A stretch of DNA of 62,588 nucleotides, the filler included, from Sphacelaria rigidula (taxonomy: Eukaryota): the NCBI GenBank assembly GCA_964200075.2. It is 8 parts of 8 records of this genome, joined end to end, with 100 filler letters (N's around TTAATTAATTAA, not from the genome) between each part and the next. Parts side by side here need not be neighbours in the genome. Positions count along the whole stretch, not along the records: positions 23,511 to 31,246 come from CAXNAA020013626.1; 7 more parts are not named here. One strand, 5' to 3'. Below, one piece after another: positions 1 to 47,149 of the stretch. Both the position numbers and the translations under genes were made by a program. Each line of letters starts with the position of its first letter. The first letter of the stretch is position 1. Under the pieces are notes generated by a model, which did not search any database, had not been told where the DNA came from, and saw nothing but the letters and a program-made list of their open reading frames with translations.

Positions 1-335
1 TTCTTCGTAGTTCGCGTGTAATGCAGCTTGAGCCGCCACTCTCCTCTACGCTTGTCGTGGACAAACTTAGGAACCGTGGTCTTCACCCACCGCATAGCGC
101 CTGGCATACGCGAGGTCAGCAGCGAGCTCTTGCAGGGGAGACACTGCTGTGCTGCTGATGCTGCCGTTCGTGACTGTCACTTTCTACAATTGCGCCGCAT
201 TTTTTTTCAGGAATTTCACGAAAATGACCGTTTCATGCGTCAATCGCGCCGCGCTATGACGCGCTGTGATTGGCCGATGACTCTTCAAGTGCAGAACGTG
301 CTCTATGCAGGATTTGGAGAGCTGTAGCTTCTAGG

Positions 336-913
336 TGTGACTTCCCTGATTTCAGCGGTGGTTTCGGATTGACCTACAACGTAGCAGAAGCAGAGTTATG
401 GTCGTCTGACGGATTGACAGCGTCTTGGCCGGCCCAGCTTGTACTATAATGAGGTTACGGTGCTGTATATGGCAAGCACAGGCTCCCTAGGCGAGGCAAG
501 GGGGTCAGTCCTCAGACTGAACGGCCAAACAGGATGATGGGCACCATCTCACACAGATGTGTCCGGGCAATAGCAGAATCTCACGCGTAGGCTATATCTC
601 TTCGTTTTTACTTGGTTCCCACCTTCCAGTATCCGATCAATCAATCCAATCTCACGCTCAGTCAATCAGTCTCACCGGTGATGGAAATCTTTGCTGGAAG
701 AGGGGTGCAGATGGTAGTACCGTGGTGTGGGGCTTCGTTTGTGCAAGGGCAACCCAAGCCGTCACCATGTCTACCATATTCAAATTCATACTCGTACCTG
801 ACCAACTCTGAACAGACCTGCAGTCTTAGAAATACCATAAATGTCATGTAAAGCCGGACTCATCAACGGGTCTGAGGCGGCATGACAATCAGAATAATAT
901 GCTCCTCGTGACA
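336..913 (-). repeat. Putative 3' LTR of the Gypsy element
   Basis: On the minus strand a purine-rich GGGTGGGTTAG (PPT-like) directly precedes TGTCAC at 913-908. The probable end is GTCACA at 341-336; an alternative end lies at 175. No second LTR is present to confirm it. Confidence 0.55.
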
Positions 914-2130
914 CTAACCCACCCAGACGAACCTTTATTACAGCTGCGAGGGTTTTATCCTCAAAGCAGAGAAAACTCAGGTTTTTCTTTACTCGTGAAG
1001 TCATGAGCGTGTCGGCTGAATAAAATATACATATGGAATCACTCCCGTACCCACTCCCACACCTCAAAATAAGGAAAGCATATATTGCTTTGAGGAGCAG
1101 AAAAACTGATTCGAACCGCGGAAGCACAAACTGCTTCTGCGTGCTAACGATCAACGAAGAAGCACAAATCGCTTCGGCGTCCTACTAAAACGAAGGGGGG
1201 AAGCAGGGAGGTACAGCAGAGAGCAGAGCTTCAACCTGGGGGAATCCAAAGAGAAAAACGGGAAGATCAGTATGCGACCAACGCATGTTTGTCGGAAGCA
1301 AAATATGAAAATCGGTGATCCAGCGAGATTGAGCGCCAGTCGGCAGGGGATACTAAAGCTCTAGTAGTCGTAGGTGGTGAGTGGCTCCAGTAGTTCTTCG
1401 ATTGTCGTCCGATGTAGGTAGTCCTGTTGTAGATGTCGTAGAGTAGGGTCATAGTGAAGAAGGGAGGGCAAGAATACTGAAGAAGAGAGGGAAAGTTGCA
1501 GCGAAGGAGCCTGGTTTGAAGCGGTGCGTGGACGTCGTGGGTGTGATCGATGTTGCGCTGGAGACCGCGGCGAAGTCCTTTGGACTTTAGGCGCTGGAGG
1601 CACCAGGATCCGCGCGGTGCAGATGGGCTGGTGATATATAGTGCTGGTCGGAGCTTGAGCTGTATGGGTCCAAGGTCATCGACGAAGCGCACGATGCATG
1701 TGTCGGCAGAAACCAGGTTAGCGGAGTGGGTCTTACCCAACCACCAGAGGTTGTCGCTGCCTTTGAACCAAAGGTAGCTGCCCTTGGGCAGTATTCGCTG
1801 GTTTGCGAAGAACTTCGTCTTACAAGTCTTGGTGGGTACAAGTTTGTAACCATCGGCGACGAAGGGTGGTCCCTGATCGCGGTGAAGTTCGCGGGCTGCT
1901 GTGCCACGACGCATGTTACGATATTTCTTGTTGTGAGCAAGATGTTGGTGTTGAGATTGCGTCCAGTACAGAAGGATTGCACGGCGGTGCAATTGAAGGT
2001 CGGATTCGCGTTCCCAAAACGCTTTCCGGAGACCGTGCCAATGGATCGAGTAGCTGTTGAAATCATACTGTGTAAGTCCGGCAGGCAGGTACTTGGGCAG
2101 GTCGCTTGTATCATGCGGGTTCGTGAAGGG

Positions 2131-2630
2131 TATGAGAAACCGCTCTGGTGCGGGGATAATCGTCCACACAATTCAAGTGCGTGAACAGCAGTCAGTAGCC
2201 CGGTTCAGGCAAATAACAGTAGTAGTGTATAAAGCGTTCTGGTTATCTTTTTGTCATTCGCTGCTTACTCACTCAGTTTACCTCAATCACTTGCACTCTG
2301 TTACTCAATAACACACACTCAATCCCTCTCATTCAACACCACACAAACGCACTCACCGCACACACTTATGCAAACCCCTAGAGCAAGGCACTTTGACAGT
2401 GGGCAAGCCGGAACCAGACCTGACTGGACGACGGTGGGCGGTGCATAGCTCGCTTGTCTGTGCATGAAGTATATTGCACTCGCACAACCTACGTCATTAG
2501 ACATTATTCCTCTTATTGACCATGATAATACTTCGCAACCTCAACACATGGTTGATGTCAACTTGTACCGCACTGGATCTTGCATCAGTGTCGTTCATGA
2601 CTGGGCGTGAGCATCTTCGATCAGCCCCCC
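2131..2630. mobile_element. ~0.5 kb insertion (possible solo LTR) interrupting the Gypsy pol C-terminus
   Basis: Pol reads LLYLDLP..KLRVSAHR (~2632) and resumes at PFTNPHD (~2128). The intervening DNA is non-coding and CA-rich, with a TGTTGAGG start on the minus strand near 2547. Confidence 0.45.
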
Positions 2631-5600
2631 TGTGCGCAGAGACGCGGAGTTTGGTGTCCTTGCCCTGGAAGTCGCGAGGCAGGTCGAGATAGAGCAGTTT
2701 GCCATCAACTGGTTTATCATCCGGTGATGATGGCTATGGTCCGACTGTCAGGATCTTGAATGGTGCTGTCCAGTTGAGGGACAGTCTTCTCTTCAAACTT
2801 GTTTGTTGTTTCGTTGGCTGCCTTGCTGGTGCCTTGGCGGATGGTCGACAAACTGTTGTAGATCCAAACCCAATCACCAACTTTCCAGTTGGGGCATTTG
2901 TGCATGAGGTTATAGAGAGCAGTGTTAGATCTCTCCAGGCGCAAGGCGTTGATAGCGTGTTGTTCGCGCACGAGGGTAAACGCTTTACGTTGTCGAGAAT
3001 GCGCTAGCTCGCGGTAGGATATCTGATCCTGATCCAATCCTTGGTGGCCATCGAACGTGTGTCGCTCGAACGCGGTGATGGGCAGCCGAGGGTAACGTCC
3101 AAGATGGGGATCGTTCGGAGAAAGGCGTGTGGCGGCATTAACCGCGTTGTTGTAGGACAACATGATGTGCAAGAGATGTAGATCCCAGTCATTTTAGTGG
3201 TCATTGATAACCATAGAGACCATCTGGGCCATGGCGCGATTAACTCTTTCGGTACCACCGTTACCGTTCGGGTGGTAGGCGCTTGTTGCATCTTTGCGGA
3301 TGCCCAGGAGCTTGTAAAGCTCATCAGAGAAATCTGAGCAAAATTGCTGATCATTAGTTGAAAGTTGTTGCTTCGGGCAACCGGGGTGCTTAATATAGCC
3401 GTGGACCAATATGTCGGCCGCTCCGGCGGCAGTGAAATCTGCAGCGGTTACCGTGTGCATGGACGCGTGGCGGCTGAAGCGGTCAGTGAAGAGTAAGATG
3501 TAGGTGTTGCCGCGACCTATGGTCCGTAGAGGGCGAAAGTAGTCAAAGGACACAAGGTGGCCTGGCTCGTTGGGGAGTCCCATAGAGATGACGGGCCAGC
3601 GTACTGTCTGCCGTGAAGTCTTTCGGGCTTGGCATTTGAAGCATCGCCGAATCCAGAAACGGGTGGGAATTTCCATGCCAACCCACCAGTAGAAGCGTTC
3701 CAAGAGCGCGAGGGTGCGGGTGACGCCAAGGTGACATGACACATCTGTGTGGAAGCCTTTCATGACCCAGGGGCGCATCAATAATGGGACATATTATATG
3801 CGCGTTGGTTTGTCATCGAGTACTCGTGCGTCTCGTCGTTGAGACGAAAATTGCGCCTGTCAAAGGCGTGGGGCGACGCATGAGTAGTTGTACACCTTCA
3901 TCCGTAAGTAAAAGGGTACCTTTACGCATGAGCTCGTATACGTCAGAAATAACTGGTCGTGGCAGTGTGCCAACCGGGGCCAGAATGGCGGGTGGAAAAG
4001 GGATGGGGCAGTCGAGTTGTAAGTACCGGATGGCTGCGCGACATAGCGATTCCGCGTTTTGTTCGCGAGCCCAATCGCGGTAAGAGTAGCTGGTGAGAAA
4101 CTCGCGTAGTTGACCTATCGCTGGCGAGCTGACCAAACATGGTGGGATAGGCAGCGGGGGAATAGGCGACGGGCCGGAAATGCCGACGTCAATATCTGCC
4201 CACGGAGCAGGAGCTACGTCGTCAGCTCCATGCTGGCGAGCGGAAGATGTTGGTGGCACCGTTATAGGCGGCGGGGCTGTATCAGTGCGCGGCGAAGATT
4301 GTCCGCGGCGCGTGGTGCACGTTGCCAGAGTTTTCGCGGAGCGTTGCGTGCTGGTCCGTGGGACCGGTGCTGCGTGGCTCGTGGAATTTGCAGGTGTTAT
4401 CGGTAGCGGCGGGGCACTCGGGGGGCTAGTGCGGGCGGTAGACCGAGAGCTCGTGTCGTTGGAGATTAGGTAGGTGACCGAAGGTGTCTCCGTGAAGAAC
4501 TTCGCGCGAGTACCGAAAGTGCGGAAATCGACAAAATCAGAGGTAGTGAGCGATGACCCACCCAAGACGGCGTCATATGGTGGAGGGTGAGGCCCTCCCA
4601 TATGCATACCGGTTTCTGGGCGCTGGAGGTCGAGAGCGTAAACGGGTGTTGAAAACCGTCTAATCGCGTAAATTCCAGGTTCATCGGGTTCCGTTAAACG
4701 GCAAGCCGGGCTGGAATCTGCGGCCGTCGGCGGCCGGGGTAGTCGAGAAAGATCAGCGTTCCCGTTAGTTTTGCCTGGACGGTGCTTAATGGTATACTAG
4801 CATGCTGTTAGAAACTCCAACCATCGTTGTACACGCGGGTTGTATTGCCAACCTTGGCGAAATGTTCGAGTGCTCCATGATCCGTATAAATCTCGAAGGG
4901 CACGTGAAACAGATATTGCCGAAGGCGCTTAATGGCCCAGGTGATTACTCTGCCTTCCAGTCCTAGCGGGCTCCAATTGGACTCGTTTGGGCAGGTTGGC
5001 GCGGTTGATATAGAGGATGGGTCGAACGGAGCCATCAACCTGAGGTTGATCCAAAACTCCTGTAGATCCGTTTGTGCTGACGTCAGTGTGGAGTTGGAAA
5101 AGGCAAGAGCAATCATATATTCCCTCCCAACCAGGAAAGCAGAGTACCGGCTTTTCGGTGAGCGTCTTGAGTAATTCGCGGGTGATATTCTCCATATCGG
5201 TTGTGAAGGTAAATACGGCTCCTTTCTTGAGTAACTCAGTTAGGGGGCGAATCCGTTGAGACAAATTCGGCAAAAACTTGCGGTAGTAGGAGAGCCCGCC
5301 CAACAATGAGCGAAGTTGAGAAATATTAGTTGGCATCGGCAAGTCAGTCATCGCCTTGACTTTGCATCCGGATGCAGGCCTGCTGGCGAAACGGAATGCC
5401 CCAGGAAATCCAAGTCAGTCCCACCAAGGCGAGCTTTGGATGGAGACAGTTTCAAATCGTATGTGCGTAGGCGAGAGAGAAATTCTCGTAGAGTGCGGAT
5501 ATGGGCAATAGGTGAGGCATCGAAAGCGATAGCGTCATCCAGGTACATGGTGATGTGCTCGAGGTCCTCGGTGACGCGTTGTATCAAGCGTTGGAAGTAT

Positions 5601-7737
5601 CCCGTGGCAGTGGCGGCGCCTTGTGGCATTCAAAGCCACTCGTAGAATCTGGATAAGGTCCAAAAGGCCGTCCGTGGGACTGTGTCAAGGTGTATGGCAT
5701 TCTGAAAAAATCCAGAAGAGAGGTCGAAGATGCTGAATATTTTTCCTTCGCCTAAGGAGGCGAAGACTTCATCAATGCGGGGAATTGGAAGTTTACCGAT
5801 CACAATCACGCGATTCAACCGTTGATACTTCACGGTTATGCGTATGTTTCTATCCTTTTGGGGACGACCACAAGTGGCGAGGCCCAAGGAGAGGAAGGAT
5901 GTTGTATTTGTCCGCTCCCAAATACGCATCCAAGATGACGTTAACCTTCTTGGTAAGGATTAGGTTTGTCCGGTATGGTCGAGAAGAGATCGGCGGGACG
6001 CCGGGTTGGAGGGCAATCTCAAAGGGCAGCGTTTTGCAATGCCCAAGATCAGTCTTGGATCGGGAAAATCGGTCTTGGTACTGTCGCAGGACATCACTGA
6101 GTTCTCGGATGACTGCCGGTTCCCAGCCGGGCCCATGAAGGTCAAAACCGATGTCGCGCATGTGTGGCGGCAGTTGGTTTCACATTTGCAAGAAGCTATT
6201 CCGAGAATCTGGTGATGAGCGCTGAACACTTTAGCAGGAGGATCGGAATTTGACTGGGCAGGATCCACGGTGTGGACCTGGGGTGGAGTCGCAGAGGGGA
6301 GGTCGAAATAAGGTACATCGACACAATGGACAGACTCCGTCAGAGATGTGACGTTTGGCGCGGCAGGCTCTGTTACGCACGTCTCGAGTGGGATGTGCAT
6401 CAGGGAGCAGCGGCGATTCCTAAAATATCGCCGGGTCCCAAGTTAGCATGACCCGTGAGAGGGAGGAGTTATTGTCCCGCCGAGAAAAAATGTTCTGTGT
6501 CGGCTGGTGCGCCAATACGGGGTAACATTTCGGCAAGAAAATGACCCGTAAGTGCTGGCATGCCATTTCGGCGAACCAGCGCAACTTCTAGAAATCGAGG
6601 ATCGTCGGAGAGTGTAATACCTACGCTACTGTTGTATCGTAGGTGGTAAGCAGCTCCGGTTGCTTGAGTATTCTTCTGGTAGGCCAGGGCGCGGTGGAGT
6701 TTATCAACGTGTTCAAATTTGAATTCTTCACGAGGCGTAGAATGCGGCGATGGTGGTGGAAGCGTGCGGTAGGTTCGTTTATTAAACCGCATATAGTTAT
6801 CTCTGCCCAATAATAGGGCGTGGTGTATAGTGGTGTCGGGGACAATGTATGCCCAGACTGCCAGGCTAGCAGAACGAGTGGTGTTGTGAAAGCATTGCAC
6901 ACTGAGACGTGCGGATTTTCGTGTCGTCAGGGGTGCGGCAGAATCACAGAAACCGCCCCATACTTGAGGTTACGTGGTGGTTTCGCAAGCTGTAGTGGCA
7001 GCACCAGTCTGTTTCATGTGTTGCCATGTTGATTCTCGAATGAATATTTGCGGGCTGCCGCTGTCCGACAAGGATGCGCATTTAGTAGGCGTGGGGTGTT
7101 TGGACCAGAATCGATCGCAATGCGTGTAGTAAAAGTGGCCGGATCCACAGACAATATACCGCCGGCAAGATCCGGACCGTGTTCCGGCAAGGTAAAATGG
7201 TCAGGATCAGCGGGGCTGACAGCAAAAACGCACGGCGGGTGATCCGCCGGTGGGTTAGATTTCTCACCAGAGGAGGGGGTAGACGGCATATTATTTCCAG
7301 GTGTGGCACGGTCAGAGTGACCTGTGACGAACATACGCCGTCACGTTGAGTTGGTGGTGATAATATGAATAATGACTGGGGGCACGGAGTTTCTGGAGGG
7401 TTGTCGATAATAACCGGGGACACGGAGATGGTATCTGCAGGTTTAGAAAGCTGGTGCCCTGGAAGGTCGCTGCTGAATAATGAGAATGTTGTAAAGGCTG
7501 ACAACTGAAACTGAGGCCATTAAAGATGGGGAGTCCCTCAAAAGCAGTGATCCAGCAGTTCTTCCACTGGCTGGCGTCACAATATTGATATTAGTACTAG
7601 TGAGTCATCCTACGATAGGGGGTATTTTGGGCCATTTGATGCTCGAAATTTCGAGTCAGATCGTCGTGGAAAGCAGCAATGGTTGTTCGAACAAGCTTGT
7701 TGTGAATCAATAACGCTCATCCATACTGCCTGACACC

Positions 7738-7837
7738 NNNNNNNNNNNNNNNNNNNNNNNNNNNNNNNNNNNNNNNNNNNNTTAATTAATTAANNNNNNN
7801 NNNNNNNNNNNNNNNNNNNNNNNNNNNNNNNNNNNNN
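7738..7837. other. Artificial contig linker (N44-TTAATTAATTAA-N44); also at 15575-15674, 23411-23510, 31247-31346, 39083-39182, 46919-47018, 54754-54853
   Basis: Seven identical 100-nt linkers carry stops in all six frames and recur every 7835-7837 nt. Confidence 0.99.
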
Positions 7838-15571: not shown

Positions 15572-16226
15572 TTCNNNNNNNNNNNNNNNNNNNNNNNNNN
15601 NNNNNNNNNNNNNNNNNNTTAATTAATTAANNNNNNNNNNNNNNNNNNNNNNNNNNNNNNNNNNNNNNNNNNNNTGTAATCCTCCGGGTTCTCATCCTCA
15701 ATGAAAAGCACCATCCTCAACATAGATGATCGGCTGTTTATTTGAAAAAATCGGGACTCGTTGCCATAAAAGTGGGTCTTAGGTCGTGTCTTATCGAGAC
15801 AAAAAAAATGAGCGATAAAGAGAAAAGCAACCGAAATAAGCTTGTTGATTGGTCGCTGCGATACCTTCCTCCCAAAGAATAAAGGCGGGGGTGCTCCTTT
15901 TTCGAGGCGGCGGCGCTTTCTTTTCCTGCAAGTGTTCGGTGTGGTGCGCCAGTCGTTGTCAACATCACTATTAGAGTATGACTCATTTTGCACCGAATCA
16001 AATAGATAATGACCGCTATGCGATAATTGCGGACTGCCCGCCGTTCGTGCACGAGGCAAGCAAGAGAACGCCGCGCACATACCGCACCGTCTGGTCGAAG
16101 AGAAAAGCTGAAGGCCACAGGCATTCATTTCCAAACTCAGTGCGGATTTTTTAGCTGCCGAGTGATAGCTCACAGCCTTTCTACACAGAGAGTTTGACTT
16201 GAGGTTGTGTGCTCTTACTTGAGAAA

Positions 16227-19200
16227 ATGGCGGAAGATGCGGGAGACATGGAGGAATTGCGGGAGCAGGATAGGTTCTTGCCTATTGCCAACATTAGCCG
16301 CATCATGAAGAAGTCTCTACCCGACAATGCCAAGATTGCCAAAGACGCCAAGGAGACTGTGCAGGTTTGCGCTATTCCTGTGTGCACCTGCTTCGTCACA
16401 TACGAAGCAAGGGTATACACTTGAAATAATGGGCGGCGTAAAAAACTCGAATTATCTTGATATTTTACAAAAGATGGGCGTCTGCCGGCCTGCGGGAGGC
16501 GCCCGTCCTGGGGCAGGCGCTTGCTGTGAGCGGAAGGTAGTTCATGGCGGGTCGCCCGTTCCGCCGCAGGCATTTGATTCATTGTGCTTGTCCCAGGGAA
16601 TCGCTGTAAGAGGTTTGAGCTTTGTCGGATCTGCTATTATCCCGTACCTGACCTTTTTTCTCTTCGCTTGGTTTCAATCTCTCTAGGAGGTGGGAGTTTG
16701 CTCTGAGTTTGAACGAGGTTCCTCGCTTCGTCACGGATGCCACCCATGTTGTGCCGCTTGCTGCTCAGACGTTGCTCCGCTGGTCTGCCGAGTGAACATG
16801 TGTCCCTCTCTCGACCGTGTCGCATAGTGCGCATAAACCACCGCACGCTCGGCGTCCCCCTTCGTGTAGAGATGTGAGAATGATATGTGTTGAAACCTTA
16901 TATACAACGAACATTGCCGGGATGCACAGCAAGTACAGTAAGAGATTCTCAATGACGACGGTGTATTCAACCCGCCTGCCGCCGGGGCCGCACACTCTGA
17001 GGATGGCTTAATTGTTTCGGCGGCGGCGCCGCTTTGACGGAAACCCCGTGGGCACTCTGCCGTGTACCGTATACCTTATCCAGGATCATGTCTGTGTGTC
17101 TTGCTGTAGCTGTTTTGAGGGTCAGGGTCAGGGTGACAGATTGCAACCACTGGGGGGCAAATATATACGAACACGTGAAAGGTTAGGCCTCCCGTCGTCC
17201 TTCGTGTGTGGCCGGTTCACCGATCGACTACGTATGAGGCCGTGTCTCGAGCCCTTGGACCACGAGGGTAAAGAGTGTCATATATTTTCTTCACTAATGC
17301 CTCCTCAATGGCTGACTCACCCTGACGGTCAAGGGGTTAGGGTTGACCCAATTTTGCAAAAACAAACTCTGCGGCCGCCTCTTATCACAAGCACAAATAG
17401 AACGCTGGAAAACTACCTTTTTGGAGCTTCAGCTGCGTTGTTTCACGCCCTTAAAGAGAGCAAAGTGGATTTCTACACCCGGGAATGCCTTGCTTTCAAG
17501 GGTCGAACAAATAATGATTCGTCTGAAAATTACTTGGTTTCAGTATAATTGATTCGACTCGTACGAATCCATCCCTAGGCTTTGTTTGCAGCGTTGCAAC
17601 CCAGGTACACGCAGCCCNNNNNNNNNCAGACACGTGGAATGGCGCAAAAGTTACGTGGATACCCCTTGGGCCAGCGGTCAACTTTTTTCTCCCTTTTGGG
17701 CAATCGGGCCAAAGAAATCGAGGATTTGGTGATTTGTAGTCGTGATGATTCGTCCTAACCGTGCTTCCTTCACCCGTTGAGACTATTCCAGTACACCGGT
17801 GCGTTTTTTCGGTGGCCGCCGTCTTTTTCTTGGCCAAGCTTGATTTTTCCTCGGAAATCGTTCATCTTTCTCGGAGACTGGTCGAGTCCAATTATTCTTC
17901 GGATTTTATTCTGGACTTGACCAGACTCCGAGAAAAATGAGCTGGGGTGGTCTCCGGGAAAAATGAAAGGTTAGCCAAAAAGAAATGCTGCGGCCACAGG
18001 GAAACGCAAAGGTGTCCTTGAACCGTCTCAATGAGTACAGCAAGGCATTGCCAGGTGTCAAAATCCACCTGGCTCTCTTTTGCGATATAGAACGGCGCAT
18101 GAGCCCCAAAAAGACAGCTTTGCTGTGTTTCTTCTTCTCATTTGCCATAAGAAGCGGTCTGAACAGAGTAATTTCATTGCTTGTTTTGAGCAGTTCTCGC
18201 TACACGTGAAAGAACAACCGATGCAACGAACGGTGACTTGACCGAGGTACAAGACCTGATCCATGTCGCAATTACTTGTAATTTGTTCCGCGGGCCCACG
18301 ATAGTGTAGAAGTTCCTGTATTCACAGCCGCTCTTGCCAGCATTTTGATCTCACGATATCCGTTTCTCAGGCGCGTATAAGAACTTTGAGATCTGCTCAG
18401 TGGAGAATGACCGACACCAAGACTCGCGATTTTGCAAAATGAAAATGGGCGTACAAGATACGCGTGAAATTTTCTTTGTTTTCTTGTTTTGACTGCGCTA
18501 CAGCCACTGAAAACATTGCTCATCGCTTCTCGTTCAGTTCCTGTTGGATCCAACCCGAAAAAAGTATATCGTGCTCAGCCAGCCAAAAGCTACATTCCGG
18601 TGTGTGTGTTGTTGCATTTCGAGTTCTGAAGCTCGTACAGCGTGGTTGGAGTGGTGTGTATACATCCTTGCTCCATGTCTCTAACCGCACCCCTTGGTCG
18701 CCACAAAACACGCCATTATCCCGGTTTTGTTCCCGTTCACCTGCCCGGTCGTGTTTACCCAACCATCAGAGCGTTCCGATCATTCACACGGCTTGAAAAA
18801 ACGACTGCCAAAGAACCGTCAAGGGTTTTATAATTTAGTCGGAAAATCGGATCCCAGTTTCGGGTCAAGACACGGCCCAACTAGGTCTGGAGTGAAAAAA
18901 ATCCACTTTCATTCAATCTTGCTGTACGCCCTTCGGCGACGCCCACTTTCGTATGAGGTGCGAGCGAGAGCAGACACGAGGTTTGTGTTGGAGAATGCGA
19001 GTTTTCTCCGAAGGCGACCACCGTAACGAAATACGGGTTCTTTCTCCAGCTCCACGCTTCGTATCACATCATCCCATCATGGAAACATTGCAGCTTACGA
19101 TGTATTTGATCTGTGGCACTTGTGGTGTATCCGTGTTCCTGTCATGGACACATGGTGCTTTAAAGCGCTGTCATTATTAAACACCCCACAGTAACTGTTC

Positions 19201-23305: not shown

Positions 23306-25137
23306 CATCCAAAACACGACCTATGGAAATATATGAAAGTACTCCAGGATTACTACTCCAATGTGCTGGGAGTATCCCGAATGAATTTTGCAAACGGGAA
23401 TGCCCTGACGNNNNNNNNNNNNNNNNNNNNNNNNNNNNNNNNNNNNNNNNNNNNTTAATTAATTAANNNNNNNNNNNNNNNNNNNNNNNNNNNNNNNNNN
23501 NNNNNNNNNNCCGTTTTTCTCTTTTAATCGTATCATCTACTCTCAATCTCACGAAAACACTGTTGAGTGTGTTCGGTCGTCTGATATACCTCGGATCCAT
23601 ATTTTTCGTGGGATCACCCCCCCCCTGCCGTCTTATTACTCTCTAATGTTACTTTTCTTGCATTGGCAATCAGGTTAGCCAAAAGGTGGTTCATCAACAA
23701 TTTCACGCCTCGCACTTGCTTTTCACTTTCTTGCACTCAATACGTTCATGACTTCGCGTCGAAACCGTGCCACCATAATTCAAACCGTTCCTCTCACGCT
23801 TCCCGTGTTCGAGATCGACAGCCCAGCAACTGTCGCTCCATCGATCCGCTGCTTGGCGCCAGCCCCTCGACGTATCATTTTCAGCTACGCAATCCAATGC
23901 AGCAGCAGTTACTTTGTACCAATCCAAACTACAGAACCTGCTCCCCCAGCGTGCACCCTACATCCTCGTTACACGTATCATTTTCGACAGTCAATTCTTG
24001 AGCTGCTATCAAGTGATGCCACGGTAGGGATGCACGTTTTGGGCCAACACTTGTCTGAGGCTGCGTACTAAGGCCCAGATATTAATCATCGAGAGGCTCC
24101 TACACAACATTGTCGCCTCAGAACAACGAAGCGCACCTCTACTGTGACATTGCTCCATCATATTTCGGCAACTAACCGATAGTTATGGTACTCTGGAGTA
24201 CTTACAGTGTTGTTCCTAATATCCTGGGGTATCGTATAGAATGCTATATGAAGCACCTATGGAGCATTGGCCGAAGTTACCACTCGTTACACCGAATTCT
24301 AGGGCCAGCAAAGTCACCATTTAACAAGACGCACAGCCATGACAGGACCCGCCAAGGCTCACCATCATAACCATGCGACTTGGTAGCACTTCGAACGCCT
24401 CCCGGCGTTGCTCGAACCTCTCAAGATGAGGCACGTGCGGGAGCATTACATCTCGGTACTATATCCACTGCTATCGCTTTAAACATTCGCCTCATTAACG
24501 ACATATATCCGGCGACAGATCCAATATTTCGTCCAAGCGTCTCACCCACAAGGCTTCTATTTACGGTTGAACGAGGACGTTAATGGTTAAACCATATTCT
24601 GTCTCTATAGGTGCAAGAATTCAACACAGCTACCCCTGCGTGAGTATACCCACGCGGGATCTGCAATATATTCCTGAAATCAGTGCGTATGACAATCTGT
24701 GGAAGTAAAAACACATCTCAGGTGGCGGAATGATTCACCGGCGGAACCGCATCAATTGGCAAGTGATCTCAAGTAGTAGATCACATCACAGACAAATGTC
24801 TCAAGCACAAGCAAATGCTCGAGAACACATGACAAGGTTTGTCTGTCGATGACAAACAGACCACAAAAAACACACATTACAATGATCTACAAGAATGATC
24901 AAAGGCAACGTACCATCAGAATCTAAAAGAATGCGCCCAGGGAGCGCTGCCCAGTTTTAGACTACACCCTAGAGTACGTGAGTTGTTCATCGGTCATTCG
25001 CAAGTTTACACTATCCCGCACAACCTCAAAACTGCGCCATGTAGTGAACACGACCGTAGAGAAATAATTATTTAGGACCACGGATTTACGGAAGACACTC
25101 TGCGCAGGAATGCTCAACCAAACACCAATTTTCTTTC

Positions 25138-27454
25138 TCAAGTGCGGTCTTGGACTATTAAACGCAAATTGGAAATTTTGTGTTCCAAAGAGAGGTCTAC
25201 GAAGCCCAAAACTAAAATACTCCACCAAACGAACACCGGGATGACAGGGGCCCAGGTCTTGACGATTTGTTTTCTGGACGAGGTGCCCCAATTGTTGTTC
25301 TTCAAGGTGAATAATGCCACCACTTTAATTGCGGGAAGCGTAGAGAAATACATGAGTGGGTACAGTATGTTGTAAAACACAATGCGGTCACGCCTGAGAA
25401 AGCAGTACACAAATAAACTGCGCAACACAGGTGTCAAAATTGTCATGATCCCGATGGCAATAAGGGACGTCCACGTGCGATAGAAGGAATCCACTAGAAG
25501 AGTTGCAATGAGCAGAACCGGAAACATCAGCCCGTAAAGACTGTCAAACAGGCTGAACATGGAACTCCGATTGAGTGTCGACCACGTGAGCTGGAGGTAC
25601 ATCTCCCGCCAGTAGCTCTTCGACCATCTGCGTAACGTTCATGACCCCAGGACAGCACGCTACAAATAAGACGAAAATCTGGACAGGGGGTGGACGCGAT
25701 GCAGGCGCACTCGACTCGAACATGGTATGGCGGTGGCGAGCGACACTACCAGCGCGTAGGGACATGACTGGGATGACCATTAGATAATAGGTCGAACGGG
25801 CTGATCTCGTAGGCACAATTAACCTCTCGGGTAGAATGCTGGATTGACTCACTGCTGCTCCACTACACTGCACTGGTTCCGAAACCCTTCATGTATTCGA
25901 GAGTGAACACCACACCTTGTCTGCTGTGCCACGAAGCGTGGGTAGGACTGCGGAGTCTCGGTAGCGCCTGCGGACGAGCAAGACACGACACGACACAAAC
26001 AACAAGAGCGAACAGCCGCGGGAGCCAACGAGAAGAGGCGACATGACTGTGAACGGGCGGCTAGTGGTGCCTGGCAAGCGGGAAGTCGACGCTTCAACGC
26101 ATTTCCGTGAAATATCTCACCTGTCGCTTTGTGAGTGTAGACGACTTTCTTCCCCAAAGCAAGAATCCTATTAGTGAGGTTCCTGTCATCCCCGAATGAG
26201 CACTTCACGCCCAAAAAGTGCTGATGCACCCATTCATCCATGGTGTCCACGATCGCCGCCGCTTCGTACATCCCCATTGGCCCTGAAATGCAGTTGACTA
26301 CTCCATGGTACCCCAGGGAAGCTCTCTCGACGTTGAAAGCAATCAAGTACCGGGAAGCAGTGAGCTTTGACAGCCAGTTCGTGGCGTTGAAGATCGTTAA
26401 CTCTCCAGCTACCGCGCCCACATCGGGCCTACCCTTCGTCATGAGAACCATCTCTGCCACAGCCATAGGATCCACTATCGTATCTGAATCGGTGTTGAAA
26501 AAATACTCTGCATCCATCTTCTGGGCCACCTTGAACGCCGAATAGAGAGCTTCCCTCTTCCCTTTATGGGGCTGAGATACCACAAATACGATCCTATGCT
26601 GAAAGGGGAAGGGAACGACTTTAGGAACCAGACGTAGAAAACTCTCATAGTTGTCCTCGAAAGGGTCGGATCGACAATCGATCCTGATGGCTGTCGGGAA
26701 AATTCTCATGGCAATCTCTGCCATCTCTTCGTCATCCTTGTCGTTCCCATCAATGGCGACCACGATCGCCCGGATATTCGAGTACACGAGACGATCTGCG
26801 GACAGGAGGCATCTCTTGAAGTATTCGGGGTCCTCGCGGTACCCCACGACATTTACGGCGACAGGGGGAGTCCAAGCATTCTCCGTGTCTTCTGCATCAG
26901 TCCTCCTGAGACTCTCCACGTAGCGTCGATTGAGAATGGCGAAGCACATCGTAAGGAAGTAATATCCAATGGAGAGACAGCCGTAGCCTGGCAAAAAGAC
27001 GTATCGTACGAGATACGAGGTCAGAACAAAAGCCATCTCGGATGAGTATGTATATTTGGACGGAAGAGTAAAGTATCCAGCAGCGTCAAGTATGATGTTT
27101 ACTCAGGTCGACCACTTATATGTTGCTAAGATGAAAACGATTTTGTGTGTTGTCGGTTCGCATACCTGTGAGGTAGACGAGGCCGTACGCCGAAGTAAGC
27201 GTCCCTCGCACGTACACCATCAGACATCCTACCGCCAGGGAAACAAACAGCGCCCAAACGAACAACGTGGAAACGAAGCGAAAACCCCGCTGCTTCTCTC
27301 TAGGCCCCGTGTAGTCGTTCACGATTTGCGTAGCCACAAGGGGTTGGGATGAGCTGAACGCCGCTTGCCAATTTCTATCGCCCTTTCCGTCGAGCGCAGG
27401 CAATGGCATAACCGTTTCGCCCTCGTCGAAGGTCGAGTACTTCCCCGAGGGCAT
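25138..27454 (-). CDS. HAS: Class I hyaluronan synthase-like processive GT2 glycosyltransferase, intact 4-exon gene, ~565 aa (621 aa if the ATG at 27622 is used)
   Basis: Phase-consistent GT-AG exons 27454(27622)-27166, 26987-26121, 25967-25916, 25627-25138. Two N-terminal TM helices, then YREDPEYFKRCL, IDGN, QPHKGKREALY, DSDT, RYLIAFNVERA, CISGPMGMY, QHFLGVKCSFGDDRNLTNRIL, TETP, QQTRWSKSYWRE (spans intron 3), further TM helices and WGTSSRK. These motifs are colinear with vertebrate and chlorovirus HAS. The polymer product is not established. Confidence 0.93.
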
Positions 27455-29099
27455 GGTCACGCAAGGAGCGAGTGCAGCAGGCGTCGGTAGCTCAGTCACT
27501 AATGGGGTTTTCTCGCCTCTGCCGGACACACATTTCCACCTATTCGTGGTCTTCCCGTTGCAGTTGTCGGCGCGGAGTCCCAGGAAGTCGGATGACTTCA
27601 ATGGAGCTCGTTCTTGATCCATGGTTCAGGCTGGGCCGTAACCAGCAGCAGGCGGAAACACAAGGCAGGGAAGTCGTGAGGGGGGTGAGTGGGGGGCGTT
27701 AAGGCGTGGTTGGTGCCTCCTTCTTGCTCGTACCGACGTTCGTGTAAAATGTTCATTCATACACCTGGGGACTGCATCTTTCAAGGAGTAGTGCGGCGCC
27801 TACAGATCATCGAGACTGTCGAGGGTTCTGAGATGATAAATATTCAAGTTCCGAACCCCCTGGAAACCCTGTGGTGCCGCTTTCCGCTAGTTTAAAGTGA
27901 GACGAGAAGCGGCCGTGTTGCGGGAAAGCTGTGGATATTAGGAGAAAGCAAAACACAAGTGCAACTGTTGACGCGTACGTACGCCAATCGCGTATTTGTA
28001 ATGGACGTAACCCTCAGCTGTAAGGTGTATCTGCCTTTGACGCTCGTATGTCGAAGACTCATACTCTGTCTTGGTGATGGACGGTAATATCAGCTGTTGA
28101 TCGATTGCTGAATCACGAAATGTGTAGCACGGTGCCATGTACCTTCATAAGACGCAACGTAGCGTGATGCCGCTCACGGAATACACAGTGCAGGGGATAT
28201 TTCCAAGGCTTCCTGCACGTGACTGCACCAGCACTTTCCAACGGCGGCGAGGGTAGGGTACGAGTACGTACCCGGAGGTACCCTGAATAGAATGTCAGTT
28301 AGAGTACCCAGTGCCCCGGGGTACGTTGGAATAGGATTTTCGTGGAAGATACGCAATATTCCACGATACCCGGCAGGGTACGGCCTCAAACAAAATCTCA
28401 GTATTTCGGGGTACTCAGGACATCGAGAGCCGAAAATACCCACCACTCTAGAGGCTAGGTTACGCTCATCACCCAAAATTCACTCATCCACATCATATGT
28501 TGACGCCGATTCTTAAAGTTAGATTATACATTTGTACCCATATACGGTGGAACATCAAGAAACCTTCCATGAATGGGGTCTTGCGATATTTGCTTCCGCC
28601 AGTGATCCGGGGTCCCAGGGTCTCGAGGAGCCACATGCCCTTCAGGAACCCCCGATAACTGGCGAATAAAAAAATCGAAAGACCCCGGTTGTGGAAAGGT
28701 TTGCATGTCTCCTAGTACATGCGTGCACAGTTTTAAGGTGTAACTTCGAAACTCGGCGAGAACATGCGCCCTTTTGTGCGATGCAGCGAGCTTGAAACGT
28801 GAGAACTAGTAACTACTTGACCCTAGTATAAAATCGTTTTTTTCGGGTACTGTATGTCCAGCGCTAATGCGAGGGAAGCTGCATCGGGTGTTCAAGTTTC
28901 GCAACCAAAAAAAGGACATTTGTTCCCGGACTACCCCGGGACACATGATTTCACCATTTTTTACTCCGAGCTTTCTGTCAGGGAGGTCGGGGGGCATGAG
29001 GTCGTCCGTATGAACGTCATTTGTCATGGCGTTAGGGCGGGGTGAGTGTTGATTGGAGCTGAAACTGATTTTGATGTTCAACCTCCAGTTTCGAAGATG

Positions 29100-29500
29100 A
29101 TGCAGAGTTTCGGAAAAAGCTTCTTCATTTCAGAGTGCAAATATCTCAGGATCAGAGTGCAGAACAAAATAAAATGGACTCGTCGGGAAAAAGTTGAGGC
29201 ATCTGACGGAGTGGGAAATAATTTTTTGTTGCACTCTGATCCTGAGATATTTGCACTCTGAAATGATAAAAAGGCGTTTTCCGTAACTATCTGATACAGA
29301 GTTTCGCGAAAAGCTTTTTCGTCATTCCACAGTGCAAATATCTCAGGATCAGAGTGCAGAACAAAATAAAATAAGCTCAGGGAAAAAAAGTTGAGGGGAT
29401 GTTGCATTCGACGGAGTGGGGAATAATGTTTCGTTGCACCCTGATCCTGAGATATTTGCACTCTGAAATGACAAAAAAAAGCTTTTTTCCGAAACTATCT
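29100..29500. repeat. Tandem dimer of ~195-bp hairpin (MITE-like) units
   Basis: Each unit has CAGAGTGCAAATATCTCAGGATCAGAGTGCA, a spacer, then TGCACTCTGATCCTGAGATATTTGCACTCTG. Units lie at ~29102-29292 and ~29297-29500. Confidence 0.9.
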
Positions 29501-30316
29501 AATCTCCCAAAGAGTGTATTTCGTGCACATGAACTACTTGCCGTTACCTCTGTAGCCCCTACCAAGTGCCGACAAACAAAGAGTCGTCTAGAGAGGCCAC
29601 GGGGAGGTACGCATTATCGCGCAAGGCAAGCTCCATCAGCCGTGTACGGAAGGTCTGTACCGTGGCCAGAAAAATAAAATAAAAAATAAAACGCTGCTGG
29701 TAACATCGTCGACGTTCAGTATATGCTATTAAACATAGACTTGGGCTGCAGAGTGTGAACACATCGGATGCCCACTAAGAATGTTCGAGAGACCCCTTTG
29801 ATGCGAAATTGAACGTGCAGCCGTGTGCTGCGCACTGTGAGGGGCCTCTGTACTGCCCATACAGACGTGCTCACAGATTGGCTTAGGGTAAACGTCCAAA
29901 CGTTTTCCCCTACTAAACACAGAACGCAAAACTGACCCCATAGAAACATGTTTGGTATCACAGTGACCCCCACGAGCAAGCGAACAGGGTGACGTGGCCA
30001 ATTTTGTTTGCGTCCTTTGACGTGGAGCTGGTATTGAAAATGGTTTTCGGCCGATCAGGTGCCATCAAATTGTTAAACAAAAAATGCGAACCTTCGACAC
30101 AACTTGCACCTAATATTATGACATATCAAAACCTAGTGACCGCCATCAGCTAGGGAAGATAACGCAAACGACAAACTTGATAACGATTGGTGTGATATTG
30201 AGTTATACCCCCGAAACGTGGTACTTCGGCAATGTGAGGTTTTTGCGTCGTAGACTTTCCACTGACTGCGAGCTAGGCCAGCCGAGAAGCGATTCTGCGG
30301 TTTGCAGGCCCAGTAT

Positions 30317-30568
30317 GCAGCCAATATTTAGAGTTGGGCCCTGAAATTTGGTATGGACAATGCATGGGACACAATAATAAAAATTTCCAGTGCACACAAG
30401 TTTGTTTTTTTCATGAGTTAGAGGCATTTTACCGATATCTGAAAACTGATTACTGCCCTTAACTCATGAAAAAAGAATAAAAAAACTTGTGTGCACCGGT
30501 AATTGTTTTATTATGCCCTATTAATTGTCCATACCAAATATCAGGGTCCAACTTTACGTATTGGCCGT
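30317..30568. repeat. Foldback/MITE-like inverted repeat, same family as 15298-15571
   Basis: GCCAATATTTAGAGTTGGGCCCTGAAATTTGGTATGGACAAT.. pairs with ..ATTGTCCATACCAAATATCAGGGTCCAACT..TATTGGCCG. Confidence 0.85.
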
Positions 30569-31346
30569 ATGATGGGCCGTTTAGTGACGGGATCATAAGA
30601 AATTCGGAACAGAATCTAGCAGGCCACTTACCGGCCCACGTTTGGTGTTTGTGTATTAAAACTTTGTGTGGGCTGTGGCTAGGGCATAATTGACGAAACA
30701 AAGTGGGTCAGGTTGTTTTACTCTTATTTCTTCACTGGTTGAGGGCGTTTTAGTATGGAAACCGCCATTGTTTTACGAGAACGCCCGAACCTCTCCCATA
30801 AAAAAAAAACAGAGGGCCCATTTTTTTTTTTTTTCAGCATACCTTTGTGGTTCTATATCCCGAGTTTCAAATTAAAATTCCAACTATTGAGCCAGAAAAT
30901 TGAGATAAGGCCCAGGAGCAGTGTTCATTTCTCCTCAAAACTGCCCCAAAAACCCGAAAAAAGAAAAAAGAAAATAATAATAATGAAAAGGCTGTGTTTA
31001 GAAGCTTTATTATGCACTAGCGGTTCTCCATACGAAATTTTATAGCATAACTCTCGAAAACTGAGACGCGATATCCAGGTTTATCTAATCTAGCGCATCT
31101 GCTCGTAATATACTGATTTTAGTATAGAAACTTATGTGCGCCATATCTCGAGATAGATTACGAATTAGGTGAAGGTGAGGGTATCTATCGTCTTCCCGTG
31201 CTCAAGGGAATGTCCACACCAAAATTCGTCGTCATCCGCTGAATGTNNNNNNNNNNNNNNNNNNNNNNNNNNNNNNNNNNNNNNNNNNNNTTAATTAATT
31301 AANNNNNNNNNNNNNNNNNNNNNNNNNNNNNNNNNNNNNNNNNNNN

Positions 31347-39072: not shown

Positions 39073-39191
39073 CAAACCACCANNNNNNNNNNNNNNNNNN
39101 NNNNNNNNNNNNNNNNNNNNNNNNNNTTAATTAATTAANNNNNNNNNNNNNNNNNNNNNNNNNNNNNNNNNNNNNNNNNNNNCGGGAGGTG

Positions 39192-43205: not shown

Positions 43206-43450
43206 TACTGTGTGTGTTGTCGTCCCATCTATTCTGGGCGCCGGTCTACACCTTTCGGAATTTGTGGGCGCACCAGCCGGGATCACACAGGAGGAAGTTC
43301 AACACAGGAGCTTTTTATTATTTTTATTTGTTTCGAGTACCCCACCTTCCTTCTGCGGCGCTTGCCTTTATTTATTTTTTTATCGCGAGAGGGGTTCAGC
43401 AGTCCCTTTCCCTCGTCGACCGCTAAGTCGAATTTTGTTTTTACTGCAAC
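43206..43450 (-). mobile_element. Headless copy of the tRNA-derived SINE body
   Basis: TGTGGGCGCACCAGCCGGG.TCACACA.GAGGAAG..CCCTTTCCCTCGTCGACC matches ~35170-35385. Confidence 0.75.
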
Positions 43451-43498
43451 CTTGTTATTGGATTACTCCCGTCTCGATACCGGAATCTCAGCGTCGCG

Positions 43499-46400
43499 AT
43501 GGCAGACCTCGGAAACATGGCGAACCGGCTGCTTAGAGCGGCATCGCAGCTGTCTCCCGTTCCTAATAGACATTCCCGCGGCAGTGGCAGAAGCCGTCGA
43601 GAAATTGGACGAGATGACATGCTGAGAGGACCGGTTCCCCCGGGGCCACCGCCGCCGCCACCACCTGGCCGATTCGGTGCTTCTGCTGCCGGGCCCGATG
43701 GAAATGAAGGCATGTGGCCACCTTCCGGTTCACCTTCTTCCTTTGCTCACCGCGATAGGGGAGGCTACAATGATAGCCCGCGAGGCTTCCTTCTTCGCGA
43801 TGACGGCTCGTCGGCGCCCCCGCCGCCGCCGCCGATGGCGCGATACAGCCATCATCGTGATGATTATGGAAATCATTCACTTGGCCGTGAAGACCAGTAC
43901 CACCACCAGCACCCCCACCAGCAAGGAAGATCTCCTCGGTCGTACGGCAGTGGCGGCGGCGGTTCCGCCGACAGGAGTTATGTTGGTGATCAGCGTATGA
44001 GCGTGGATGGAAGTCGGGACTGGGATCGTGAAAGAGGCAATGCTTACCGCCGGAGCAATGGCGACGATAGTGACCACAGGCGTAGTTATCATGGCGGTGT
44101 CGGGGGTGGCGGCGGGTATTCCGGCCGAAGTGGCAAAAATTCTTCCGTATTTAGTTATCACGGAGAAGATTATGGGTATGATCATCACGGAGAAATGGAT
44201 CGCGGCCGCGGAGAAGATTATGGATATGACCATCGCGCAGAAATGGGTGACGGCCGCGGCGCCGTGCGCAGATGGAGAAGCAGCAGCGCCGGGAGAGAAC
44301 GCGACCATCGCAGCTGGGACAGGGGTGGTAGCGCGCAGGCTGATGGTAAAGGGTTGAACGGAAACGGCGTGCACTGGGAACGCGAGTGGCAACGAGATGC
44401 TGGCGGTGCTGGGACCGGGGCCGGGGCTGATGGCGTTGATAACCATCATTACCGTGGCTCCACAAACAACAGAAGGGAGGGCTCGGGGCCTCAGATGCTG
44501 CGGCGACCCGGCGGCGGCGGCGACAACGAAGGGGGCGATGAGGTGATCAGCGTAGATTCTGATTCGCCCGAGGAGGCGCATGAGCATCGGGGTCGTTCTG
44601 ATGCGCGGCAGAAGCGCCAGCACCAGCGGGTATCGCAACCGCTTCCGTCTCAGTCCCCTCCTCCGCTACCTCCTCCTCCCCGGCGACCTCAGTCAGCTCA
44701 GTCCAACGGTGATCGGTCGGTTAGTAGTAGTTGCAGTATTGGTGCGAGAAGTTTACAGACCCCCCCGCCGCAGCAGTCTCAATACCAGGAACACCAGTAC
44801 CAGCGCCAGCAGTTGTCAGAGAAGGCGCCGAGGAAACGAAGCAGAGGCAGCAGCGGCGGCAGCCGCATTTCCGCCACCGCGCAGACGGATATGGACGTAG
44901 AAGCGCCACCGATGTCTCGAGAGCCTCTTGAAATTACAAGCAGGTTGGGAGCGGCAAGCCTGCGGCGGCTAGCTGACCCAGTGGACGCAAGACGGGAGGG
45001 AGTGGCGGCAGCGACGGCGGCTGAGAATGAGGAGCAAAGAGGGGCAACGCGTTTGAAGTGCCCCCATACGAGCTGCCCATTGCACAAGGAACTCAGCTTG
45101 GAGCCTAATGCGATGGCAGCACATCTTGTGTAAGTACTATGGGTGAATAATCATACTTGACGATCCAAGTGGAATATTTTGTTTCACCAAACATGAACTG
45201 ACACAGCGGACGATTGAATATAACAGGGCGTGTAGATTTAGATTGATTGCGCTGCTTGCTAAACTATAGGATCTTCACGATGTTGACTACAATTTTTCTT
45301 CCGATGCGATATCATACGGGTATTTTTTTCATGTTTTTGTGACGCACTACGGTGTGCCTGAGAGTCGCTCACCCTGGAGGAACCACCCATGGATATTCAT
45401 GTCACGTGGATGCTGCTCATCACGTGAACTTGTGCCAAATGACCCATGGTGCACAGTAGCCCACCGAACACCAGCCGAACGCTTCTACGCAAAGTTATGA
45501 TGTACTGGTCACTTTACTGCTTGGCTAAACCTGTTGGCAACGGAAAATAAACTCAGACGGCCCCATATATCGTTGGGCAGTCGATATTCAATCCAGCAAA
45601 AGGTACCCAATATCACCCTCGTTTGTCGAGGCGTTTACGCTTATCCTGAGAGATCTGTCGTAAAACAACACCGTTTTGTGGTAGGTCGCACACTCGGGAG
45701 GCGACGGAAATGCAGAGCATCAGGGGCTACGTCCGCAGCACTGTGGCGGAGGTTCTGCACGACGTGTGCATGGATGTGCTAGTGGCGCCCCCTCAGCGAA
45801 ACTTCGACAAACGACGAATGAACAGGTTTGCTCCTTTCTTCGTTCGTCTGTGGCGTTTTGTTTGCCTTCCGATGGGCTTCTCCAGAGAGACCCGAGCCGG
45901 GCTCGCGTACTGAAACTTACGTCTTGTTCCGTGCTCCTATTTTCGTTCTCCCCGATGGAATGTTTTTTTTTCCATGCAGGACTATGACTCTCCATCGGCG
46001 ATGAGCGTGTGATCGCCATTATTTGCGCACAACCGACTCTCAACGTTTCGATTTTTTGTGTCTTATATACTACGCAGCGCTCTGGTGGGATCTCTGGAAG
46101 GGGGTCTGGGGATGCCGGCCGCGATGCTGGAGACCAAGGTCCTCGGAAAAATCGGCAACCCTGCGATCCGGTGAGTCGGGGGAGACAGGGTTGTTTGAAC
46201 CCCCAACGCTGAACCTGAGCTGAGCCTTAAGCTAACCCCACCCAACCCTCGTGCGTACAAAACATCGTCGCCGTTGACGACAAGTAAGGCTCCGAGCCTA
46301 ACCCTAACCCCATACCCTACCCCAACCCAACGCAACCCAACCCATTTGTATCCATCATCACTATCACCATCATCAACATCAACAACAACAACAACAACAA

Positions 46401-46832: not shown

Positions 46833-47149
46833 GTGAGTCCTTTGTCGTTGTTCGTCACATTTTGATTTTTTTTTTACTTGAGCCACCGCGCCCCGGTGGT
46901 GTAATGGTCCGACTGTCGNNNNNNNNNNNNNNNNNNNNNNNNNNNNNNNNNNNNNNNNNNNNTTAATTAATTAANNNNNNNNNNNNNNNNNNNNNNNNNN
47001 NNNNNNNNNNNNNNNNNNCTGGCGTACTTTCACATATTTTCATAGGCCACATTTTGCATGAGATGAAGGGCTCCTAACAATTCTAACCTCAGAAAATATT
47101 TCTGCACCCCTACCGTAGCATCTCTCTGCTGCGCCATTCAAGATCTACC

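Follow-up and report, generated by a model that had tools for sequence, protein, structure and literature searches.

Hyaluronan synthases (HAS) have been characterised in vertebrates, chloroviruses and some bacteria, and Cryptococcus also has a characterised enzyme. The walls of brown algae are described as alginate, fucans and cellulose. The gene analysed here comes from the brown alga Sphacelaria rigidula (GCA_964200075.2). The window, meaning the whole stretch of DNA that was analysed, is 62,588 nt long and consists of 8 records joined with 100-letter filler; the gene lies inside the part from 23,511 to 31,246 (CAXNAA020013626.1). It is transcribed and spliced, its protein belongs to the class I HAS family as judged by sequence and predicted fold, and it is probably a host gene for a working HAS-family synthase. 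The predicted product and the origin of the gene are each less certain than this.

The full protein was compared with 177,635 PDB sequences using phmmer at E≤1. Seven matches were obtained, five of them HAS (XlHAS1, 3.3e-72; CvHAS, 1.1e-68 to 6e-68) and two of them designed repeat proteins at E 0.02, with no chitin or cellulose synthase among them. An AlphaFold model was generated from a 50-sequence alignment (pLDDT 81, pTM 0.78), in which residues 1-107 are disordered. Foldseek ranks 1-13 for this model were all HAS (E 2e-32 to 9e-28, target TM 0.74-0.82). Bacterial cellulose synthase BcsA followed at 7e-14, leaving the best HAS 18 orders ahead in E-value, and chitin synthases were found at E about 1e-12 with TM 0.30-0.44. 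The nearest ESM Atlas clusters were HAS2 of chordates, 'hyaluronan synthase' of Ascomycota and one Nucleocytoviricota cluster. Pfam returned generic GT2 families together with Chitin_synth_2 (36.8 bits, cut-off 27), which is also found on vertebrate HAS in precomputed Pfam lists; neither exon 1 alone nor exon 4 alone gave a Pfam match. The top NCBIfam match was NodC (TIGR04242) over residues 279-573, at 149.7 bits against a cut-off of 550. The top match in a library of viral structures was a 570-aa entry with 29% identity. The N-terminal 107 residues are 76% conserved in an environmental fragment, P0156.

The gene is on the minus strand, with the ATG at 27622-27620 and the stop codon at 25138-25140. 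Four coding exons separated by three GT..AG introns give a coding sequence of 1866 nt and a protein of 621 aa with a single terminal stop. The original prediction had placed the gene at 25138-27622, which is exactly stop codon to ATG, and had joined four exons in phase as found here; its length of about 565 aa was too short by about 56 aa, exon 2 starting at 26987. Every motif block that it named was located, namely GYREDPEYFKRCL, GKRE, RYLIAFNVERA, CISGPMGMY, FLGVKCSFGDDRNLTN, QQTRWSKSYWRE and WGTSSRK. It had left aside whether the gene was already annotated: the spliced product is identical to P0001, deposited as CAM9768150.1, 'unnamed protein product [Sphacelaria rigidula]', so a gene model exists in the databases without a name. 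Eight public runs contain the stretch, none of them recorded as RNA, and four (X1, X4, X5 and X7) were aligned as assembled contigs. The features of the gene, in the direction of transcription, are as follows.

27623..27633, minus strand: short piece of 5' untranslated region (UTR), stopping at the probable acceptor of a 5'-UTR intron
27166..27622, minus strand: coding exon 1, 457 nt; residues 1-152 and the first base of G153, with the disordered N-terminal extension (1-107) and membrane helix 1; contigs of X1, X4 and X7 span 27165-27633
26988..27165, minus strand: intron 1, 178 nt, GT..AG; the joint in X1, X4 and X7 omits 178 nt and is not in DNA run X5
26121..26987, minus strand: coding exon 2, 867 nt; membrane helix 2 and most of the GT-A catalytic domain, with GYRED, H293, K296 (GKRE), D319-S-D321 (26482-26490), R365/Y366/F370/R374, C385, C415 and GDDR 418-421 (26182-26193)
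25968..26120, minus strand: intron 2, 153 nt, GT..AG; the joint in X1, X4 and X7 omits 153 nt
25916..25967, minus strand: coding exon 3, 52 nt; ATETPQSYPRFVAQQT and the first two bases of R459
25628..25915, minus strand: intron 3, 288 nt, GT..AG; the joint in X1, X4 and X7 omits 288 nt, and a retained form of lower depth is also present
25138..25627, minus strand: coding exon 4 with stop, 490 nt; W460, S463 and R466, with membrane helices 3 and 4, interface helix 3, the WGTSSRK gating loop (25270-25290) and one membrane helix at the C-terminus
24600..25137, minus strand: probable 3' UTR, at least 538 nt; from contigs of 2092 nt, whose positions 1063-2092 correspond to 24600-25629

The QQTRW motif is interrupted by intron 3. 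Contigs from X1, X4 and X7, which belong to two studies (P1 and P2), carry the joints 25627/25916, 25966/26120 and 26986/27165 across all three introns, the ends of which read CT..AC on the plus strand. In the DNA run X5, which is deeper, the sequence is contiguous and none of the three joints is seen. The contigs of X1, X4 and X7 were taken as transcripts because of the spliced joints themselves and not because of run labels. The junctions, whose confirmation the original prediction had left to RNA sequencing, were in this way observed in contigs from two studies whose run kinds are guessed or not on record. Intron 3 was retained in 346-nt contigs at a depth of 6-11, compared with 16-30 for the spliced form; the contigs give neither strand nor expression level. 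Transcript-like contigs continue past the stop codon to at least 24600 and for about another 1 kb. This suggests a long 3' UTR, or possibly an overlapping neighbour gene as the contigs are without strand. At 27633 the contigs of X1, X4 and X7 diverge from the window with loose ends of 89-255 nt, the first 30 letters of which had no match in the 62.6-kb window when up to 2 or 3 mismatches were allowed. Most simply, this suggests a 5'-UTR intron with an upstream exon that is distant or masked.

X4 has 15 listed differences from the window (24662-27575), whereas X1, X7 and X5 are identical to it, and the public data therefore contain a second allele or strain. Six of the differences are in the coding sequence, three synonymous and three non-synonymous. 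The non-synonymous changes affect residues 29, 90 and 109 and reach no further than the point where the structured part begins; none is in the catalytic domain or the later membrane helices.

Residue roles were taken from the available text of PMC11750622 and PMC12987647, and positions were transferred using HMMER alignments to the HAS in the PDB. Every residue highlighted in that text and mapped is conserved in the S. rigidula protein. The uracil and nucleotide contacts are kept as Y202 (Y202/E204 in GYRED), H293 and K296, the DxD motif as D319-S-D321, GDDR as G418-D-D-R421 and QxxRW as Q456-Q-T-R-W460. The acceptor collar and the arginines of interface helix 1 (IFH1) are R365, Y366, F370 and R374, equivalent to XlHAS1 R287, Y288, F292 and R296, which adjoin the acceptor and the glucuronic acid (GlcA) residue GlcA-2 according to the same two sources. 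Switch-loop C385 corresponds to XlHAS1 C307, priming-loop C415 to C337, E445 to E367 and S463 to S385, and R466 is kept as the equivalent of CvHAS R348. The gating loop is W572-GTSSRK-578, in which the W, T and R that were mutated in XlHAS1 are retained, as far as the available part of PMC11750622 describes them. Several of these positions are in motifs common to the wider family; read from sequence, what their conservation shows is a working processive HAS-type enzyme and not which polymer it makes.

If the enzyme works as CvHAS and XlHAS1 do, its cytosolic GT-A domain would bind UDP-sugars through the DxD motif and Mn2+/Mg2+. The acceptor-site N-acetylglucosamine (GlcNAc) would sit under W460 of QQTRW, with D420 of GDDR as base, and the WGTSSRK gating loop would close over the nucleotide. 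The membrane helices of the enzyme would themselves form the channel through which the growing beta-linked chain is pushed out. Most likely, the product contains GlcNAc. A hyaluronan-like polymer of GlcNAc and GlcA is the first choice for the predicted product, at slightly below an even chance; chitin or chito-oligomers come second, and another polymer would be the least expected of the three.

Relatives were collected by a word-indexed search and an exhaustive HMMER search of 1.84 billion representatives. The latter gave 2771 matches at E≤0.001 and 290 at E≤1e-30, with few close relatives. A paralogue from the same species, P0262 (CAM9871912.1, 476 aa), is 76-78% identical to P0001, and the same three intron sites interrupt its genomic read-through, P0002. 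The fragments P0122 and P0156 are from a close relative. Beyond these are environmental intronless proteins of 490-520 aa with 45-49% identity, found on metagenome and Logan contigs of up to 121 kb (P0009 on the 121-kb contig, P0265 on one of 66 kb); none of the best 150 environmental representatives exceeds 57% identity except Sphacelaria-like fragments. A third S. rigidula copy, P0412 ('unnamed protein product, partial', 438 aa), was recovered by searching with P0009. It ends before the gating loop, is continuous across all three intron sites, and is 47% identical to P0001 and 81% identical to P0408, which is from a 61.6-kb metagenome contig. P0412 may be a recent provirus-borne copy. The named brown-algal matches are from S. 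rigidula only (1 of 120 listed in the P0001 search, 2 of 120 listed in the P0009 search). Other brown algae are absent from the named matches listed, a result obtained without direct tblastn of their genomes and without a positive control that the database contains them. Other brown-algal assemblies are listed as deposited in the available text of 10.1101/2025.04.25.649966.

Four trees were calculated: FastTree with 159 rows, FastTree with 146 rows including 38 IMG/VR loci, a quick IQ-TREE with 58 rows and a careful IQ-TREE with 44 rows. Rows were picked by query coverage and the vertebrate sequences were thinned to 5-12. In the careful IQ-TREE the intron-bearing Sphacelaria pair (100/100) is inside a 25-row clade (100/100), which also holds the ~320-aa fragments P0020, P0021, P0023 and P0025 and a 19-row clade (98/98). 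P0412 is nested in the 19-row clade at 100/99, and chordate HAS are set apart from the S. rigidula subfamily by 100/100 branches. P0033, P0027, P0009, P0167 and P0151 were tried as stand-ins for CvHAS in the trees and rejected, all being equally distant from CvHAS when compared with the PDB; the trees are without CvHAS itself.

A profile scan of IMG/VR located 38 giant-virus loci with HAS-like genes. The best open reading frame (ORF), L007 (L007:4520-5734), is 39% identical to P0001 over residues 120-598 and 95.5% identical to P0018. It is carried by a 548-kb contig, G001 (IMGVR_UViG_3300045973_000375), with two capsid genes of nucleocytoplasmic large DNA viruses (NCLDV). The same contig has 67 matches to the EsV-1-7 cysteine motif over about a dozen ORFs, one of them directly downstream of the synthase. 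The EsV-1-7 domain is characteristic of phaeoviruses and brown algae. The immediate neighbours of the synthase encode a YqaJ recombinase, the EsV-1-7 Cys-repeat protein, a GDPD and an AP endonuclease, none of them sugar-precursor genes. A nucleotide-sugar dehydrogenase of 370 aa (L047:832-1944, about 127.8-128.3 kb) lies 230 kb from the synthase; its NDP-sugDHase subfamily score of 131.5 bits is under the 189.8-bit cut-off. The presence of this gene is too weak a basis for inferring the product of the synthase. According to the available part of 10.1101/2024.02.19.579948, brown-algal genomes, Sphacelariales included, contain integrated giant-virus DNA. The window itself is without a viral island, 1 of its 20 long ORFs having a Pfam match, to a retroelement integrase.

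Gene exchange with giant viruses, its direction open, was inferred because the short-tailed subfamily is shared with environmental sequences and lies near a giant-virus gene, and because S. rigidula has two intron-bearing copies and one intronless copy. We consider such an exchange likely, at about an even chance; in either direction, it would have been followed by intron gain and duplication. A wider reading can be put forward tentatively, in which Sphacelaria, and perhaps the whole of the Sphacelariales, would make a hyaluronan-like GlcNAc/GlcA matrix polymer with a HAS gene captured from or shared with integrating giant viruses and domesticated by intron gain, duplication and an N-terminal regulatory tail.

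Several observations weigh against a working, virus-linked hyaluronan synthase. X1 and X4 are only guessed to be RNA and the kind of X7 is not on record. The gating loop reads WGTSSRK instead of WGTSGRK/R, a single G-to-S change. The last membrane helix (TMH6) is missing, the AlphaFold model having one helix (585-620) after the gating loop; the 50 residues after the gating-loop W contain one hydrophobic segment, whereas all three vertebrate HAS checked have about 90 residues there, with two segments. In XlHAS1 the last membrane helix takes part in channel opening, according to the available text of PMC11750622. The short tail is common to every subfamily member checked, the viral one included. 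The CvHAS contacts to the GlcA carboxylate, K177 and R341, sit in family-wide motifs, and conservation therefore does not separate hyaluronan from chitin synthesis. The sequence does not tell a hyaluronan-like from a chitin-like product, and the activity of the S. rigidula protein, like that of its 25-row clade, is a prediction. As to the viral link, the L007 ORF falls in a clade neighbouring the 25-row clade in all four trees, with a weak sister link (53/41 in the careful tree). For the nearest clade, IMG/VR gave 1 distant locus among 41 pattern matches, without P0019, GTDB genomes gave 0 of 11 and the JGI contig set gave 2 distant loci among 102; in three cluster look-ups the only names were S. 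rigidula and one annelid. That this clade is viral is inferred only from its ORFs, which lack introns and lie on metagenome contigs no longer than 121 kb.

The same residues and matches bear on what else the enzyme might make. A synthase using GlcNAc only, with a NodC-like function inside the HAS sequence family, could produce chitin as a wall fibril or chito-oligosaccharides decorated by other enzymes, and this is possible though clearly less probable than a hyaluronan-like product. NodC as top NCBIfam match and the passing Chitin_synth_2 score point in this direction, as does the priming of HAS enzymes on GlcNAc described in the available text of PMC11750622 and PMC12987647, and there is no known residue that separates the two activities. 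The accessible parts of two other sources describe an expanded brown-algal GT23 able to fucosylate chitin oligosaccharides (10.1101/2025.04.25.649966) and chloroviruses with either hyaluronan or chitin synthases (PMC9614988). The NodC score is, however, far under its cut-off, and the IFH1 arginines that adjoin GlcA in the XlHAS1 channel (R365 and R374) are retained. The original prediction had also considered that the protein might group with ordinary chitin synthases, but the solved enzymes gave no phmmer match at E≤1 and only low fold similarity, and the chitin synthase EsV-1-84 is 16% identical. A GT2 enzyme with an electropositive channel could alternatively be the brown-algal mannuronan synthase, which makes the alginate backbone, or another homo-uronan maker; the mannuronan synthase is described as unidentified and expected among GT2s in the available text of 10.1101/2024.04.23.590721. 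The channel arginines are retained here, and an Alg8-named bacterial cluster appears at rank 13 of an ESM Atlas feature search (score 0.96), a lead only. All brown algae make alginate, yet the named brown-algal matches listed are confined to S. rigidula and the best environmental representatives are equally sparse in close sequences; alginate synthesis uses GDP-ManA, whereas the uracil/UDP contacts of CvHAS (Y91, H174, K177) are conserved as in HAS using UDP-sugars. Because of this narrow distribution and the conserved UDP contacts, mannuronan synthesis, which the original prediction had offered as an option, is very improbable.

Still less probable is that there is no working host gene at all, whether because the contig is a contaminant, because the sequence is viral DNA inserted and silent, as with the EsV-1 chitin synthase of Ectocarpus, or because it is a pseudogene in decay. 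The integrated giant-virus DNA of brown algae makes an insert conceivable, the integrated EsV-1 chs gene is given as silent in the available text of PMC5122149, and the same species has an intronless and truncated third copy in P0412. Against this, three spliceosomal introns interrupt the gene and are spliced out in the contigs of two studies, its ORF is intact with all catalytic residues present, and its intron positions are common to the paralogue P0262, as judged by the P0002 read-through. No dense viral ORFs surround it, and the low identity to EsV-1-84 separates it from the silent insert. Contamination from an animal or fungus, also raised in the original prediction, does not fit the spliced introns, and in the trees the gene does not fall within animal or fungal groups. 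The central claim of that prediction, an intact, spliced HAS-family GT2 gene in a stramenopile (brown-algal) nuclear genome, is upheld by the PDB and fold matches, the splice joints and the trees.

Other features of the window were recorded. An ORF at 3197-3793 on the minus strand, within about 1-7500, has an integrase zinc-binding H2C2 domain and a weak rve core and is a remnant of a long terminal repeat (LTR) retroelement. At 43427-45133 on the plus strand, an open frame of 568 aa has no Pfam matches and is of low complexity (poly-Pro and Gly/Ser/Arg/Asp-rich); it is probably an exon of a disordered nuclear protein. Paired 44-N blocks recur every ~7836 bases, at 7738-7837, 15575-15674, 23411-23510, 31247-31346, 39083-39182, 46919-47018 and 54754-54853 (also 17618-17626), and look like an artefact of masking or scaffolding and not biology.

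In the literature on brown algae, no paper describing the S. rigidula HAS-like gene was found, and the two Phaeoexplorer preprints and the life-cycle preprint do not contain 'Hyaluron' in their main texts. The gene adds a member, deposited without a name, to the known HAS enzyme family. An expressed HAS-family enzyme in a seaweed points to a polymer that nobody has assayed there, and the gene drops off the list of candidates for the general alginate polymerase. The S. rigidula HAS-like genes are also a candidate case in which a matrix-building enzyme passed between giant virus and host, in either direction, and a single genome has both old and recent copies of it. If a hyaluronan product and a viral link were both true, this would be the first nuclear-encoded hyaluronan synthase of a photosynthetic eukaryote, and one species would hold a living series from a provirus copy (P0412) to host genes (P0001 and P0262).

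Among known systems, the more distant comparisons are with NodC and with the viral chitin synthase. NodC (TIGR04242) matches over the catalytic core, but it is bacterial and about 395-420 aa long, and the score is well short of that model's cut-off. EsV-1-84, the 'ESV class' enzyme of Ectocarpus siliculosus virus 1, is likewise a processive GT2 of a brown-alga virus that is also integrated in a brown-algal genome, according to the available text of PMC5122149, which reports it as transcriptionally silent; it belongs to a different GT2 family (TM 0.51/0.63). The giant-virus gene L007 is closer, being a short form with one C-terminal membrane segment, but it is intronless, encodes 487 aa without the N-terminal extension and has the gating loop WGTSDRK.

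CvHAS (PDB 7SP6-7SPA, 8SNC-8SNE and 9YQ2-9YQ5) has the same fold as the S. rigidula model (Foldseek E about 1e-28 to 1e-31, target TM 0.74-0.80) and matches in sequence at a phmmer E of about 1e-68 over residues 150-599. The DxD, GDDR and QxxRW motifs, the acceptor cysteine, the R348-equivalent R466 and the uracil contacts are in common, and CvHAS is tied to an alga-infecting giant virus, as are the relatives of the S. rigidula gene. The two proteins are about 29-30% identical. The CvHAS gating loop is WGTRGGNAK, and about 78 residues follow the aligned end, compared with 22 in S. rigidula; the S. rigidula gene is nuclear and intron-bearing with a 107-residue disordered N-terminus, while the product of CvHAS is hyaluronan. 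Vertebrate HAS1-3 differ in having two membrane segments after the gating loop instead of one. The closest solved enzyme is XlHAS1 (PDB 8SMM/8SMN/8SMP), which is 27-30% identical in the fold alignment. It is both the best PDB sequence match (E 3.3e-72) and the best fold match (8smp, E 2e-32, target TM 0.79-0.82), its gating loop WGTSGRK is nearly identical to WGTSSRK in S. rigidula, and its R287, R296, C307, C337 and E367 are all conserved in the algal protein.

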